Source of the DNA: Candidatus Shapirobacteria bacterium
Lineage (GTDB): Bacteria > Patescibacteriota > Microgenomatia > VGLL01
DNA length: 60,671 nucleotides
Reading direction: 5' to 3'
Assembly (NCBI GenBank): GCA_016866735.1
Contig: VGLL01000001.1
Coordinates: 1-60,671, forward strand
Part shown: positions 35,173-39,895 of the stretch, in pieces
Layout of the letters: the number at the start of each line of letters is the position of its first letter
Numbering within the stretch: the first letter of the stretch is position 1
Position numbers and translations under genes: made by a program
The notes under the pieces: model-generated
Database searches by the model: none
Told to the model about the DNA's origin: nothing
What the model saw: the letters and a program-made list of their open reading frames with translations, nothing else

Positions 35173-35201
35173 TTGCAAAATAATAGATCATGCTCTATAA
35201 T
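35173..35201 (+). promoter_or_regulatory. sigma70-like promoter upstream of nrdJ
   Basis: TTGCAA (35173-35178), a 17-nt spacer, then TATAAT (35196-35201). Confidence 0.55.
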
Positions 35202-35206
35202 ACGGT

Positions 35207-35228
35207 TTATGGCGCAACGGCGCCATAA
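35207..35228 (+). promoter_or_regulatory. 9-bp stem-loop in the nrdJ 5' leader
   Basis: TTATGGCGC-AACG-GCGCCATAA lies immediately downstream of the -10 element and 16 nt before the ATG. Confidence 0.5.
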
Positions 35229-35243
35229 TATACCGAGAAAACT

Positions 35244-37018
35244 ATGAGAGAAGCATATTGCGGCGAATCCAAATCTACCTTTAAATCCAGTTTTCTGCCT
35301 TCACCTCTGGCTGAAAAAGTTCTCAGAGAAGGCCGTATCATAGGTGCCTCCGAGACACCTCAAATGATGATCAAAAGGATGGTCGAAGCGCTTTTTGTCC
35401 CCGAAACCTGCTTTGGGACCTCCACCGCCGAAATCCAGCGGTTAATCGAAGACTTCGGATTTTTTTTAGATGGAAAGTACTGCGTGATGAGTACGCCTGT
35501 CATGACAAATGCAGGCCGATATACAGATAGACCGTTATCTGCATGCGCTGTTCCGCCGCTTGATCTTCGAGGAGATCTCCGAAAAGTGAAACAAGTTGTT
35601 GATGAATTTCATCAAGCTGGTATGGGTACCGGCTTTAACCTTAATGATACCGAAAACCCAGTTGAGATTCTCGGATTTCTTAACGGTGTGGCCGTCGATG
35701 GTGCCAATAGCGGAAAGGAAAATCGTCCTGTTGGTAACATGGCAATTTTAAGTATCCACCACCCTCGCATCTTAGAGTTCATTGAGACGAAGGTTGGATC
35801 AGATGAGCGAGGAGAAAATTGGAAGTTTAATATCTCTATTGATGTAAGTCCAGAATTTATGTGTGCCGTTGGGGTAGGAGAGCATTATAGGCTAAGTGAT
35901 GGTACTTACCTAAATGCACGAGAAGTAATGTACCGCATTGCAGAAAGTGCTGTTGCCTGTGGAGACCCCGGATTGGTCTTTCTTGACCGTTTTGATAGAG
36001 ATAATCCCACGCCTGGGGTTGGAGCATATGTGGGCTAGCTCCTTGCGCAGAAGTGGGGCTCGTGGCTGGCGAATCATGCCAATTTGGGTATATCAACGTT
36101 GGTAAGTTTGTTGATCCGTTATCTGGTATTAACTATAGCCAGCTTGAAAAATTAATAAGATTAATGACTCGTGTTCTTGATAACGCTCTCGAATTTAGTA
36201 TTGAACATTACGCCCACCCACTTAATCAACAAGTAATGAGAGCAAAACGAAAAATCGGAGTAGGTATTTGCGGACTAGCTGATATGTTACTTCAACTTAG
36301 GTTACCATATAGCGATCTAAGATCAAGGAGAGTTGCGAAAGATGTTATAGCTTTCATTAACTACGTGTCCAAACTTGAATCTCATGAGCTTGCAAAACAA
36401 AGAGGCTCATTTGGGGCGATGGGCTTCGTTTCGGGTTGTCGATACAACGACAACCCTGGTTTTCTTGAGGAAAAATATGGATCTCTTGAAACAAGAACCG
36501 TTACTCCTATTATGTGGAGGGACCTTGCCTCTAAAATACGAGATACTCGGCTATTAAGAAATGCATCTACTGTTGCTCTACCCCCAACGGGAAGAAGTGG
36601 ACTCGTGATTGATGCATCTACAGGAATAGAGCCGATATTCTCGTTAGTTGGATACGGAGGAGAAATTAATCCATATCTTAAGCGAGAACTCGATAAAAGA
36701 CGGCTGCTTAACGAAGCTTTATGCCGACAAATTTTTGGACTCGGTCGTGTGGGAAGTATGGGAGGGGTTCCTCATGACATCAAAGCCGTCTATCAAACTG
36801 CGCTTGAGATAGAGCCGCAAGAACACCTTCTCATGGCTGGTGAAATTGAGAAAGCAGTTGACGAATCAATCGCGAAAACAGTAAATATACCAGGCGCATC
36901 AACTACCGACGATGTTGTGAAAATCTATCTTCAGGCGTATAAATTGCGTCTTAAGGGTATCACTATTTTTAGAACAGGAAGTAGAAAGATCCAGCCAAGA
37001 AAATTGGCAAATCTATGA
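35244..37018 (+). pseudogene. nrdJ: class II (adenosylcobalamin-type) ribonucleotide reductase interrupted by one frameshift near 36035
   Basis: ORF 35244-36038 ends ...GDPGLVFLDRFDRDNPTPGVGAYVG*. The frame shifted by -1 continues ..LAPCAEVGLVAGESCQFGYINV (the NPCGE..ESCNLGSINL active-site region) to 37018. Other RNR motifs are MSTPVMTNAG, LSACAV and HHPRILEFIETK. Confidence 0.75.
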
Positions 37019-37047
37019 AAGAAGTAAGGGGACACTATTAACCCGAT

Positions 37048-37674
37048 CTAAAATTGCGCTTCTTCTCTCATTAGCATATTTGTAACACTCTTTGGAACAA
37101 TTTGTTGACTTGAGATACCTAATTCTCGCAAAAAATCTTTAATCCTTGTCTTCGCCTCTTCGATTTTGTCTTTGGGAGTAATGATTTCAGCTTCAAGAAT
37201 TGGTCCGAAATCAACGATATCTTCAAAAACAAGGGCCATTCCTTCTACAGAATAGGTTGAGCGGTCTTTCTCTAATGTAAAGTATGGCTTGAAGCTCATC
37301 GTTTGCAAAATAGCTTTAGCCTCGTCAAAAGAATCAACTGCTATCTCATGCTCTTCCCAGGCATTGTGATCTCCGTATTGGGTAATCATTTTAGTGTTTA
37401 TTTCGATACGAGTTTTACCGTTTTCCACTTTTTGGCGAAGTCTCAAACTAAACGAGCCCACTGTGTTCATCTCGATTTCCGGAAAAGACTTAATATTTAT
37501 GGGGCAAAAATACGCATCTTTGAGGTGTTCTGTTTTCTCTAAAGTTGCACCCCTGGCTTCTAACAAATGGGTTAGTTCCCTTTTCTGTCTCGCCTTCAAC
37601 AAGGCTCTTATTTCAACCTCATGTAACCCTTTATCCTCTTTTGTAGGGAGTTCTCTTCCTATAGATCCTTTCAT
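37048..37674 (-). CDS. CYTH-domain protein (class IV adenylate cyclase / triphosphate tunnel metalloenzyme family)
   Basis: HEVEIRALL (ExExK motif, here ExExR), SFSLRLRQ, EINTKM, EEHEIAV, LEKDRSTY and ALVFEDIVDFGPILEAEI follow the CyaB-like CYTH strand pattern. Confidence 0.65.
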   Translation of the reverse strand: MKGSIGRELPTKEDKGLHEVEIRALLKARQKRELTHLLEARGATLEKTEHLKDAYFCPINIKSFPEIEMNTVGSFSLRLRQKVENGKTRIEINTKMITQYGDHNAWEEHEIAVDSFDEAKAILQTMSFKPYFTLEKDRSTYSVEGMALVFEDIVDFGPILEAEIITPKDKIEEAKTRIKDFLRELGISSQQIVPKSVTNMLMREEAQF

Positions 37675-37706
37675 ATACCTATTACCGTCGTAACTATTTT
37701 TTCATT

Positions 37707-37722
37707 TTGCTATAATTAGCAA
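37707..37722. promoter_or_regulatory. operator-like palindrome in the divergent CYTH / RHH-gene intergenic region
   Basis: TTGCTA-TAAT-TAGCAA is a 6-bp perfect inverted repeat that overlaps a TATAAT hexamer (37711-37716). It lies 43 nt upstream of the RHH-containing ORF. Confidence 0.5.
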
Positions 37723-37764
37723 TAGGAAACAAGAGCCATTATACTATAGAAAACATCTAAAGTC

Positions 37765-38373
37765 ATGTTTTATATGCGATATAAAACTCAACCGCCAAAA
37801 AACAAGAGAACAGTTTTTGTTACGTTTTCAAGTAAAAGACTTAACCCAGAATCAGGTTTCTCATACAAAGACTTTATCAAAGTTATTGAAGAAGATTGTA
37901 ATTTACACATCAAATATCGCTGGTTTGCGCGAAAACGGAAACATGATCCAGATAAAATTCATTATAATGCAGTGGTGGCTATAAACGAGGCAGATTTTTT
38001 TATTGCCGAAGTCTCGGTCGCTTCAATAGGAGTTGGACAACAAATCGCACATGCACTTCAGAAACAAATCCCAACATTCTTATGTTTGAGAACGGAGCTT
38101 AAAGATACGAATAACTTATCCTTCCTTAAGGGTACTAAATCAAGAAATCTTCATTTTATCTATTACACCGGCAGTGATGATCTTAAGAGAGAATTGTCTA
38201 AAAAAGTAAGCGTGGTCAAAAGAGATAACTTGGAAAAATTTAATTTTCTTGCGACACGCGAATTGAAACAACTTTTGAAACAAGAAAGTGAGAAACGTAG
38301 ACTTTCTCAATCAGCATTATTGAGGGAAATTATTGAAGAATGGGCAAATAATAAAAAAAAGAGTACAGCTTAA
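37765..38373 (+). CDS. fusion of a nucleoside 2-deoxyribosyltransferase-like (Rossmannoid) domain and a C-terminal ribbon-helix-helix DNA-binding domain
   Basis: TVFVTFSS...AINEADFFIAEVSVASIGVGQQIAHALQKQIPTFLCL matches the NDT-like pattern (..aD.viA....pS.G.G.EiG.A...g.Pv..l). The C-terminus FNFLATRELKQLLKQESEKRRLSQSALLREIIEEW is a CopG/Arc-type RHH. Confidence 0.5.
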   Translation: MFYMRYKTQPPKNKRTVFVTFSSKRLNPESGFSYKDFIKVIEEDCNLHIKYRWFARKRKHDPDKIHYNAVVAINEADFFIAEVSVASIGVGQQIAHALQKQIPTFLCLRTELKDTNNLSFLKGTKSRNLHFIYYTGSDDLKRELSKKVSVVKRDNLEKFNFLATRELKQLLKQESEKRRLSQSALLREIIEEWANNKKKSTA

Positions 38374-38391
38374 TAGTCCGCACACTAGAAT

Positions 38392-39071
38392 TTATAAGTG
38401 GAAAAGAACAGTTATTTCCCCTTTTGGCGGATTGTTAGAATAAAAAGCCTGAAATTCTGAAAGTTTTCCTCTCCTGGCCTCTTCGTAAATTTTTGTTAGT
38501 TCTCGGGCAATTACAATTTCGAGCTCACCGAAAATCATTTTAAGATCAACGAGGGTCTTTACCAGCCGGTGCGGGCTTTCAAAAAAGATTATCGTCCCTC
38601 TGAAAAATTTACTTACTGAGCGAAGATTTCGAGAAATCTGGAGCCATTTACCCTCTTTTTCGGTAGATAACCAAGAAATAGAAATTTGTCGGTAGGCAAT
38701 CCAGAGCAGACAAGGGAAGCTAAAAGTGCCGACGGGCCGGGAATTGCCTTGACTTTTGTCCCTTGTGAGAGACACTCCCTCACCAATTTATACCCAGGGT
38801 CAGAGATAGTAGGCGTGCCGGCACTGGAAACTAAGGCGACATTTTTACCACCCTTTAAATCTTCAATGAAAGGCGAGATGCGCTGGAGCCCATTTTGCTC
38901 ATAATAGGAAATTAGTCTTGCCTTTTTGACCACTCCTAGCTTTTCTAAAAGGAGGCCGGTTTTCCGCGTATCTGCAGGCAATAAGATCAACCTCGCCCAG
39001 CACTCTTAGCGTCGGACAGTAATATCTTCAAGGTTGCCAATTGGCGTCGAAACGACATATAAAGTGCCCAT
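38392..39071 (-). pseudogene. rsmI: 16S rRNA (cytidine1402-2'-O)-methyltransferase RsmI, disrupted by at least 3 frameshifts
   Basis: The minus strand from 39071 reads MGTLYVVSTPIGNLEDITVRR*. A second frame reads TLRVLGEVDLIAC. A third reads DTRKTGLLLEKLG...SAGTPTISDPGYKLV...IPGPSA..LPKK. A fourth reads ..TIIFFESPHRLVKTL..ARELTKIYEE. Together these are all the RsmI motifs, spread over four frames. Confidence 0.75.
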
Positions 39072-39148: not shown

Positions 39149-39895
39149 TTACGGAAATATCTTCAGTCCGTAGTTTAAGAAATCTTTGCTATTAGGTCTT
39201 CGGTGAAGCTTTTTTTGAACAATGGCAAATGCCTTATTCTCAGCCCCACTATTTAGCACCCACTTTCCTAAAGGGTAGGCGACTAGGTCAGCTATTTGCA
39301 TACCGGCAATGTTCTGCATTTTCTGACTAAACGAAAGATCGGCTAACTTTCTTTGAACTTCGGCGGCAGTAATATAACGGTGGTTATTTTCTTTAAATTT
39401 TTCATAAATCTTCGCTAATTTCTGATCGTTATGAGTTTCTCGCGATTCTATTTTTAACATCATTTTCTCTCTGGAGGCCCCAAGGTACATAACGGCACGC
39501 TCTAGTATAAACTGAAAACATAAGTGGTAGGGATTATCTGGAGCAGAATATTGGTTTTTGAGCTTATTCTTTTCGATGGCGGCTGAAATTACTTTAAATT
39601 CGAGTCTTTTAACAAGATTATCTAGGGCCTGGTAGAATTCTTCCCTTCTCTTTCTATCTACCAGACAGGCAAAATCACTCTTCTGCTTGCGAATATCATA
39701 AGAGCGGAGAATGAGATTGTTTTTGCCAAAAAAGCATATTTTCAACTCATTGACTTGTTTTTCTGCCTTTTCGAAGTAATAATCAAAATCGAAAATACAA
39801 CCAGCAAGAACAAACATAGGATAAGATTGATCAATCTTATCTAGACTGTGATCTCCTGACTCGTCAAGAAACATTATTTTCATCTGTGGCATCAC
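39149..39895 (-). CDS. DUF3800-family protein
   Basis: The N-terminus KIMFLDESGDHSL...MFVLAGCIF carries the characteristic DUF3800 D-E-S-G start. The gene is isolated on the minus strand between the rsmI pseudogene and uvrB. Confidence 0.6.
   Translation of the reverse strand: MMPQMKIMFLDESGDHSLDKIDQSYPMFVLAGCIFDFDYYFEKAEKQVNELKICFFGKNNLILRSYDIRKQKSDFACLVDRKRREEFYQALDNLVKRLEFKVISAAIEKNKLKNQYSAPDNPYHLCFQFILERAVMYLGASREKMMLKIESRETHNDQKLAKIYEKFKENNHRYITAAEVQRKLADLSFSQKMQNIAGMQIADLVAYPLGKWVLNSGAENKAFAIVQKKLHRRPNSKDFLNYGLKIFP

Follow-up and report, generated by a model that had tools for sequence, protein, structure and literature searches.

We analysed a stretch of 60,671 nucleotides (hereafter the window, meaning this DNA at its full length) from a contig that belongs, by the source name of its entry P0001, to Candidatus Shapirobacteria of the Candidate Phyla Radiation (CPR). 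The subject of this work is a divergent pair of genes, one for a CYTH protein and one for a 202-aa protein that we call TF (transcription factor), together with the ribonucleotide reductase (RNR) gene nrdJ beyond the CYTH gene and a tandem sequence box at the nrdJ promoter (Table 1). The called open reading frames (ORFs) agree with an earlier reading of the DNA letters alone (the original prediction) as to the divergent 202-aa gene and the 90-bp spacer that separates it from its neighbour.

Table 1. Coordinates of the features discussed in the text (window numbering; RHH, ribbon-helix-helix)
Feature	Position	Strand	Description
TF gene	37765-38373	+	202 aa ORF; alternative start Met4 at 37774
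Sensor domain of TF, residues ~14-150	37804-38214	+	DNPH1/MilB-type nucleoside-5'-monophosphate N-glycosidase fold
RHH DNA-binding domain of TF, residues ~154-197	38224-38355	+	Strand EKFNFLAT, helix A, turn LSQS, helix B
Candidate operator	35209-35226	n/a	Two tandem 8-bp boxes, ATGGCGCA ACGGCGCC AT, i.e. ATGGCGCAACGGCGCCAT
nrdJ promoter	35173-35201	+	Sigma-70-like, TTGCAA-17-TATAAT, 10/12 matches
nrdJ	35244-37018	+	Class II (B12-dependent) RNR; split: 35244-36038 and 36053-37018
CYTH gene	37048-37674	-	208 aa ORF
CYTH/TF spacer	37675-37764	n/a	90 bp, divergent promoter region
Promoter-like sites in the spacer		+ and -	TTAGCA-18-TATACT (+); ATGACT-17-TATAAT (-); consensus-level hexamers only
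rsmI-like TP_methylase gene	38392-38990	-	Split over two overlapping frames, directly downstream of the TF gene
DUF3800 gene	39149-39895	-	E 5.8e-17; G+C 36-39%

A word-indexed search found five close relatives of the TF, at about 47% identity, and an exhaustive HMMER search with an alignment of the close members returned 815 clusters (50% identity) at an E-value cutoff of 1e-3, of which 137 pass a cutoff of 1e-10 and 20 one of 1e-30. With few exceptions the members are 185-200 aa long and are matched from end to end, RHH domain included, and it is this near-uniformity that makes the two-domain architecture the mark of a substantial family. The hosts that could be identified are Shapirobacteria, Kerfeldbacteria and Dojkabacteria. 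Members are labelled in the databases as 'hypothetical protein' or as 'nucleoside 2-deoxyribosyltransferase', and the latter label is probably wrong. An AlphaFold 2 (AF2) model built on a deep family alignment of 72 sequences reached a pLDDT of 91 and a pTM of 0.80; an earlier, shallower model (pLDDT 71.6) gave the same Foldseek matches. We are confident that the 202-aa protein is a transcription factor in which a degenerate DNPH1-like domain is joined to an RHH domain. No record in Pfam, NCBIfam or PADLOC describes such a fusion or the box discussed below, and in the literature we found no description of fusions between RHH domains and DNPH1 or nucleoside 2-deoxyribosyltransferases (NDTs), of CPR RNR regulators or of the box sequence. 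The TF would join two known kinds of regulator, ligand-sensing RHH proteins and RNR feedback repressors, and both its sensor and its site would be new to them.

The C-terminal domain shows the strand-helix-helix pattern of the RHH class, with an N-terminal strand that alternates polar and hydrophobic residues and an S/T/N cap before helix B, and the helices of the AF2 model span residues 165-178 and 182-201. When the window protein is searched alone, Pfam gives weak C-terminal matches to RHH_1 (E 0.038) and RHH_3 (E 0.13); RHH_1 likewise matches all six of the close members weakly, with a best E of 0.016 and below the gathering score. A profile of the C-terminal region retrieves CopG, AvtR, VapB, MazE, ORF56 and Arc chains from the PDB at E 0.025-0.75, hhalign gives matches to Mnt (E 2e-4, with the FNF strand aligned) and Arc (2e-3), and the PHROG family 'Arc-like repressor' matches the TF at E 0.009. 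Conservation is high at the corresponding positions: K/R158 is present in all 142 family representatives, N160 and R187 in 131 each, and S183 is nearly invariant. Weak but concordant evidence places the C-terminus in the Arc/Mnt/CopG class of RHH domains, so that the RHH domain that had been proposed for this protein stands as RHH-like.

The DNA that this domain might read was found at nrdJ, 2.5 kb upstream of the TF gene. Its consensus is ATGGCGCC ATGGCGCC AT, i.e. two tandem 8-bp near-palindromic units, and in the window it starts 8 nt past the -10 element of nrdJ and so covers the transcription start. The 60.7-kb window contains this one match only, with 0.05 expected by chance. The related loci, all of them reached through TF homology (20 contigs encoding clear full-length or partial family members were fetched and are denoted by L-numbers), tell the same story: the box is present at all eight distinct nrdJ-operon promoters examined. 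Seven have it 4-8 nt after the -10 element; in L008 it adjoins that element or overlaps it. Equivalent -35 and -10 elements are found at nrdJ in the other loci, and in L007 the box precedes a Tmk-nrdJ operon. The 5' regions of nrdJ present a G+C-rich box amid A+T-rich, unalignable DNA; information amounts to 1.54 bits per box position vs 0.30-0.42 in the 40-nt flanks. The number and quality of the units vary. The left unit is degenerate in L003/4, and four tandem 8-bp boxes (ATGGCGTA ATGGCGTA ATGGCGCA GTTGCGCC) stand at positions 3205-3238 of L009, where the direct repeat is kept and the hairpin is lost. The L009 boxes also run into the called nrdJ start codon, and the true start of that gene may lie further downstream.

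The main argument for regarding the box as the candidate operator of the TF family is that it recurs with a distant TF branch without RNR nearby and is missing from members with another strand. Two independent contigs, L026 and L033, encode TFs of that branch, with the strand QKFNFIAN and 27-28% identity to the window protein. In both, the TF gene is the first of an HMG-CoA-reductase/mevalonate operon, and RNR is absent nearby. Both contigs carry the box (ATGGCGCCATGGCGCCAC at 4188-4205 of L026 and GTTGCGCCATGGCGCCAT at 2641-2658 of L033) ahead of the TF start codon, at a distance of 38-46 nt, and in 200 shuffles of L033 zero box matches are expected. It precedes a shared, -10-like TGCTACTAT by about 20 nt, and its centre falls near -41.5, a position that many activators use and that is compatible with activation as well as with occlusion of the -35 element. 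Members with the strand VRFN[FL], on the other hand, have no such box, so that the box follows the KFNF[ILV]A-type RHH rather than nrdJ alone. Taken together, the comparative data indicate that the tandem box is probably the operator of the TF. For single GGCGCC or 8-bp boxes at other places in the window, and for those of the RNR-less loci, no positional pattern was seen. A scan of viral contigs gave six matches, all in G+C-rich DNA and with no family member near, and was set aside as uninformative.

The alternative that survives best accepts the TF as real, assigns the box to another, unlinked regulator or to an RNA element, and limits the TF to its own promoter and that of CYTH, which it would control through non-conserved sites such as the palindrome described below. 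Divergent regulator/target pairs commonly share an operator, the spacer does hold an imperfect inverted repeat, and the TF and the box are linked entirely by comparative genomics. We nevertheless consider this alternative unlikely, because the box recurs before the distant TF branch without RNR and is missing where the TF strand is VRFN[FL], and because neither a common motif in the spacers nor covariation for an RNA hairpin was found. An RNA structure in the nrdJ leader, whether hairpin or riboswitch, was rejected in its own right: Rfam has no match there, covariation of paired positions is no better than in shuffles, and the calculated folding energies of the hairpin run from -15.9 to -2.3 kcal/mol. 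The position of the box upstream of the -10 element in L026 and L033 also counts against an RNA element, as does the degenerate left unit of L003/4.

The spacer between the two genes contains the palindrome that the original prediction took for an operator. Its presence was upheld: TTGCTATAATTAGCAA at 37707-37722 has zero mismatches and overlaps a TATAAT. The operator role was not, since, when the 90-bp spacer is shuffled, 22% of the resulting sequences contain an inverted repeat whose 6-nt arms are no more than 6 nt apart, no counterpart was found upstream of other TF genes, and the six orthologous CYTH/TF spacers share no motif or k-mer above shuffled controls. The palindrome was rejected as an operator on these grounds, and the 'TAATTA' cores that visual inspection suggested in several spacers cannot be separated from the A+T-rich background. 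As side observations, the palindrome extends to the imperfect 19-nt arms (79% complementary, 37694-37735) mentioned above, and an 11-nt inverted repeat (91% complementary, 37746-37775) crosses the TF start codon; no conservation was found for either.

The N-terminal domain of the TF is what gives the proposed regulator its sensor. In a Pfam search with the window protein alone this domain had no match, and PF05014 was matched by five of six close sequences (best E 1.7e-5). The 72-sequence family profile, searched against the PDB, retrieves DNPH1/Rcl at E 2e-19 and the CMP N-glycosidase BcmB at 8e-7, with classical NDTs at 2e-4 to 0.15. Foldseek with the AF2 model finds MilB at 2.8e-6 and DNPH1 at target-normalised TM-scores of 0.7-0.82. 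The segment ADFFIAEVSVASIGVGQQIAHAL at residues 76-98 aligns to ADVVVAEVTQPSLGVGYELGRAV of rat Rcl. An NDT-like domain had been expected from the letters, and the match is more exactly to the DNPH1/MilB branch of the NDT superfamily.

The active site has not come through equally well. In human DNPH1 catalysis depends on Y24, D80 and E104, the phosphate is held by S98 and S128', and the E104Q mutant is an inactive, substrate-trapping form (PMC10603095); E104 is equivalent to E93 of rat Rcl. At the Y24, D80, S98 and E104 positions the window protein has F18, A69, S87 and Q93. Among the 142 family representatives the position of the catalytic Glu is occupied by Gln in 85, Leu in 27 and Glu in 16. 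The column of the general-acid Asp holds Ser, Ala, Ile, Val or Asn, with no conserved Asp, while the phosphate-binding Ser is kept in 131 of the 142. In the nrdJ-linked subfamily, which we define as members at least 38% identical to the window protein, S87 is shared by all 25 proteins tallied and Q93 by 21. The protein shares with the DNPH1/MilB branch its fold and its phosphate Ser, but neither the catalytic Glu nor the Asp. The economical reading is that the N-terminal domain is a nucleotide-binding pseudoenzyme, and the loss of the catalytic residues together with the retention of the phosphate-binding Ser makes a nucleotide-sensing TF the best interpretation of the protein. This part of what had been suggested earlier is supported. 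Phe at the Y24 position corresponds to a MilB-like, ribose-tolerant state (PMC10603095).

One could also envisage a bifunctional enzyme-repressor comparable to PutA or BirA, in which the N-terminal domain is an active N-glycosidase or transferase that serves salvage or sanitation of the nucleotide pool and the RHH domain merely autoregulates. The clear DNPH1/MilB homology, the nucleotide-salvage context and the 16 members with the nucleophile Glu (which may still be enzymes) speak in its favour. We give this a small chance only: 89% of the members have Gln, Leu or some other residue in place of the Glu, the Gln of the window protein is the same exchange by which DNPH1 has been made inactive, and none of the members conserves the general-acid Asp. 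In addition, contig L017 (175-845) has a TF fragment followed by a stand-alone DNPH1-like gene with the catalytic Glu (GLGIEIG), which suggests that the enzyme function is supplied separately.

The divergent partner of the TF gene is, as had been proposed, a minus-strand CYTH protein of 208 aa. It matches Pfam CYTH at E 2.3e-12 with 47.5 bits (cutoff 23.2) and has the sequence HEVEIR at residues 18-23. The TIGR00318 cyaB equivalog scores 48.6 bits, below its cutoff of 57.95. The nearest relatives in the PDB are the Pyrococcus furiosus protein 1yem, the class IV cyclases 2fjt (Yersinia) and 3n0y (PH1819), and the Sulfolobus triphosphate-tunnel metalloenzyme (TTM) Saci_0718. Among six orthologues of related loci, at 46-55% identity, there is no variation in the tunnel residues E19, E21, R23, R78, R80, K95, E108, E110, K136, R138, E151, D152, E161 and E163; the invariant motif is ExExR, the family consensus ExExK. 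The protein is an intact TTM of the CyaB-like short form. Like CyaB and the archaeal TTM triphosphatases it is a short single-domain CYTH with the full set of acidic and basic tunnel residues; unlike CyaB it scores below the cyaB cutoff, has ExExR for ExExK and lies with nrdJ and kinases. Since the gene is tied to nrdJ and nucleotide kinases and can be swapped for a MutT-like NUDIX gene, a hydrolase of nucleoside triphosphates (NTPs) or of tripolyphosphate (PPPi) is favoured over a cyclase; most plausibly the enzyme would hydrolyse (d)NTPs, the ribo- or deoxyribonucleoside triphosphates. We speculate, with little conviction, that it might make the ligand of the TF.

The gene neighbourhood bears on both proteins. 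A search with the close-member alignment gave four genome loci and nine metagenome loci, and neighbouring genes were labelled by phmmer and Pfam/NCBIfam. The divergent pair occurs in six distinct loci (window, L001/2, L008, L009, L012/13 and L014); the co-occurrence that the original prediction had proposed as a check is thus borne out by five other, independent loci. An nrdJ gene is adjacent to the TF gene or near it in the window and in L001, L003/4, L005, L007, L008, L009, L011 and L015/16, and within the nrdJ-linked subfamily RNR stands beside or near the TF in every sufficiently flanked contig but L012/13. The typical gene order is nrdJ, nucleoside monophosphate (NMP) kinase, kinase, CYTH (-) and TF (+), and the L009 neighbourhood further holds HIT, HD, Tmk, DUF1846 and NUDIX genes. 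A MutT-like NUDIX gene adjoins the TF gene in L003/4/11, L005 and L010; across the genomes it takes the place of CYTH or occurs alongside it. At 5288-6277 of L008 the DNPH1-like domain, the RHH domain and a MutT-like NUDIX form one uninterrupted frame of 329 aa, a fusion that, in the Rosetta-stone sense, ties the TF to the NUDIX standing in for CYTH at other loci. The kinase genes between nrdJ and CYTH (AAA_18-type and AAA_28/adenylate-kinase-like) were seen in L001, L008 and L009; in the window these two genes are missing, the CYTH gene comes directly after nrdJ and the G+C content falls at the junction.

The nrdJ gene of the window is itself interrupted. Its halves match an intact orthologue in two frames with 60-64% identity (tblastn). 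A 1-nt deletion next to a GGG run, in the interval 36025-36040 and near 36030-36036, splits the gene into ORFs of 264 aa and 321 aa, and with one base restored the reading ...AYVG-LAPCAEVG... agrees with intact NrdJ orthologues. The orthologue, of about 590 aa, scores 366 bits with TIGR02504 NrdJ_Z and has no ATP-cone domain on record. No NrdR was found with tblastn and the E. coli protein in the window or the loci, whole genomes not being part of that search.

The composition of the neighbourhood also bears on the original framing of the pair as a nucleotide-signalling conflict or defence module, in which the CYTH protein is a cyclase that produces a signal and the NDT-like/RHH protein an effector, or an autorepressor on the palindrome. 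Several features lend themselves to such a view: the CYTH protein is CyaB-like, the divergent pairing is conserved in the six distinct loci, and the pair sits in a low-G+C patch with a DUF3800 gene nearby. These local features had been read correctly from the DNA. The G+C content is 34-38% across about 36900-38700 vs 44-48% in the flanks, two decayed neighbours (nrdJ and the rsmI-like gene) are both frameshifted, and the DUF3800 gene is where Table 1 places it. A DUF3800 gene was, however, found in none of the related loci examined, and it therefore appears unrelated to the pair. Searches for a defence or phage origin were empty but for one match: PADLOC-DB v2 has zero families at E <= 1 for both proteins, and PHROG has none for the pair except the weak Arc-like repressor for the TF. 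Moreover, the cyaB equivalog score is under its cutoff, an effector gene is absent, CYTH is interchangeable with a MutT-like NUDIX, the palindrome is at chance level and not conserved, and the pair lies inside a conserved housekeeping deoxynucleotide cluster (nrdJ, nucleotide kinases, NUDIX, Tmk) in several CPR lineages. We regard a defence module as very improbable and a defence or phage origin as rejected; the locus looks like a deoxynucleotide-supply island, not a defence island. A toxin-antitoxin (TA) pair with the RHH protein as antitoxin and CYTH as toxin, which the frequency of RHH domains in antitoxins and the VapB and MazE chains among the weak matches might bring to mind, can be practically discarded, as the genes are divergent and not co-transcribed, the RHH domain sits C-terminal to a 150-aa sensor domain, NUDIX can replace CYTH, the synteny with nrdJ and kinases is conserved, and there are no PADLOC or TA-family matches.

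More distant members of the family (25-30% identity) are found in other settings, among them tandem paralogues, dCMP deaminase with NUDIX, the heads of mevalonate operons, a PfkB gene with a radical SAM gene, and a GHMP kinase gene with a Ham1-like gene. L022 (8001-9176) and L023 (7419-9163) contain two to three tandem paralogues that have the strand VRFN[FL] and lack the GGCGCC box, and in L023 these adjoin dCMP deaminase and NUDIX genes. These tandem paralogues suggest that the family has diversified into several specificities.

How might the system work? The DNPH1 and RHH folds are both obligate dimers, so the TF should bind as one dimer per 8-bp box. On tandem boxes we would expect a cooperative dimer of dimers, as with MetJ on metboxes. 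Occupancy of the nrdJ box would block transcription initiation and lead to repression, and a nucleotide in the retained phosphate pocket would set the occupancy. The outcome would be a transcriptional feedback on deoxynucleotide synthesis for an RNR without ATP-cone. The CYTH enzyme, or NUDIX elsewhere, would hydrolyse (d)NTPs, either for sanitation of the pool or for production of monophosphate for the sensor. As a complete statement, a TF that represses nrdJ in response to a nucleotide through the tandem box is an interpretation towards which we lean slightly.

A number of observations weigh against this interpretation and need to be discussed. The first concerns the window, where nrdJ is frameshifted; this may point to a defunct circuit or to an assembly error. 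In L012/13 the CYTH/TF pair is present with neither nrdJ nor the box within 10 kb, and the more distant family members stand in unrelated contexts. On the protein side, the RHH assignment is built from several matches that agree with each other, none of them individually significant, 16 members still possess the catalytic Glu, and the Phe at the Y24 position is compatible with a ribo- as well as a deoxyribo-ligand. As for the operator, every locus compared was retrieved through TF homology. Finally, no box was found in the TF or CYTH promoter of the window, and autoregulation and control of CYTH are unsupported here.

The proposed regulator can be compared with NrdR, the ATP-cone/zinc-ribbon repressor. 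The two have a similar logic, in as much as both would combine a nucleotide sensor with a DNA-binding domain and act at tandem boxes over RNR promoters. In other respects they are very different. Firstly, there is no relation in sequence or fold: the sensor is DNPH1-like and not an ATP-cone, and an RHH domain takes the place of the zinc ribbon. Secondly, the NrdR box is AT-rich with a 16-bp consensus, whereas the box described here is GGCGCC-based with an 8-bp period. With neither zinc ribbon nor ATP-cone in the TF and with a different box sequence, the system falls outside the NrdR regulon. By analogy, NrdR would be the closest functional counterpart, and MetJ, NikR and PutA the closest ones in architecture.

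MetJ recognizes tandem 8-bp near-palindromic metboxes in variable number and needs a small-molecule corepressor; the boxes described here are also tandem, 8-bp and near-palindromic, in two to four copies. The FN[FL] recognition strand of the TF's RHH domain is shared with Arc and Mnt. The TF differs from MetJ, omega, Arc, Mnt and CopG in that the ligand function is in a separate N-terminal domain of 150 aa, the RHH domain is C-terminal, and the box is unrelated. NikR (RHH with an ACT-like domain) and PutA (RHH with enzyme domains) are, like the TF, one-polypeptide fusions of RHH and a sensor or enzyme in which both domains oligomerise. Here, however, the domain order is reversed, the sensor is a Rossmann-like pseudoenzyme of the NDT superfamily, and a nucleotide presumably takes the place of metal or proline as the ligand. 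With DNPH1/Rcl, MilB and BcmB the TF has in common the fold, the ADxxIAE...PSxGVG motif, the phosphate Ser and, probably, a dimeric arrangement. It departs from these enzymes in having neither nucleophile Glu nor general-acid Asp and in its added DNA-binding domain, and is predicted to bind a nucleotide, not to cleave it. Unlike a type II TA system, the locus has divergent genes, a CYTH or NUDIX partner and an RHH domain C-terminal to a 150-aa domain.

To our knowledge, the control of RNR expression outside NrdR is poorly known, and transcription factors and their sites are almost uncharted in the CPR (Patescibacteria), bacteria that depend on salvaged nucleotides. A broader picture, which we offer tentatively and hold to be doubtful in its entirety, is that CPR bacteria carry a large and so far undescribed class of one-component regulators in which a DNPH1-type sensor is wired to an RHH domain reading tandem TGGCGCCA boxes. 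One branch would replace NrdR for class II RNRs that have no ATP-cone and another would control the mevalonate pathway, and the adjacent hydrolase (CYTH here, NUDIX elsewhere) would make the monophosphate read by the sensor, i.e. a gauge of the deoxynucleoside triphosphate (dNTP) pool. What the present comparison offers is a circuit made testable, with a protein family, a putative site of 18 bp, a promoter as target and a short list of candidate ligands. It would also be a clean case of a pseudoenzyme recruited as a sensor, in which the natural change from Glu to Gln is the one that crystallographers have used to trap the substrate in DNPH1.

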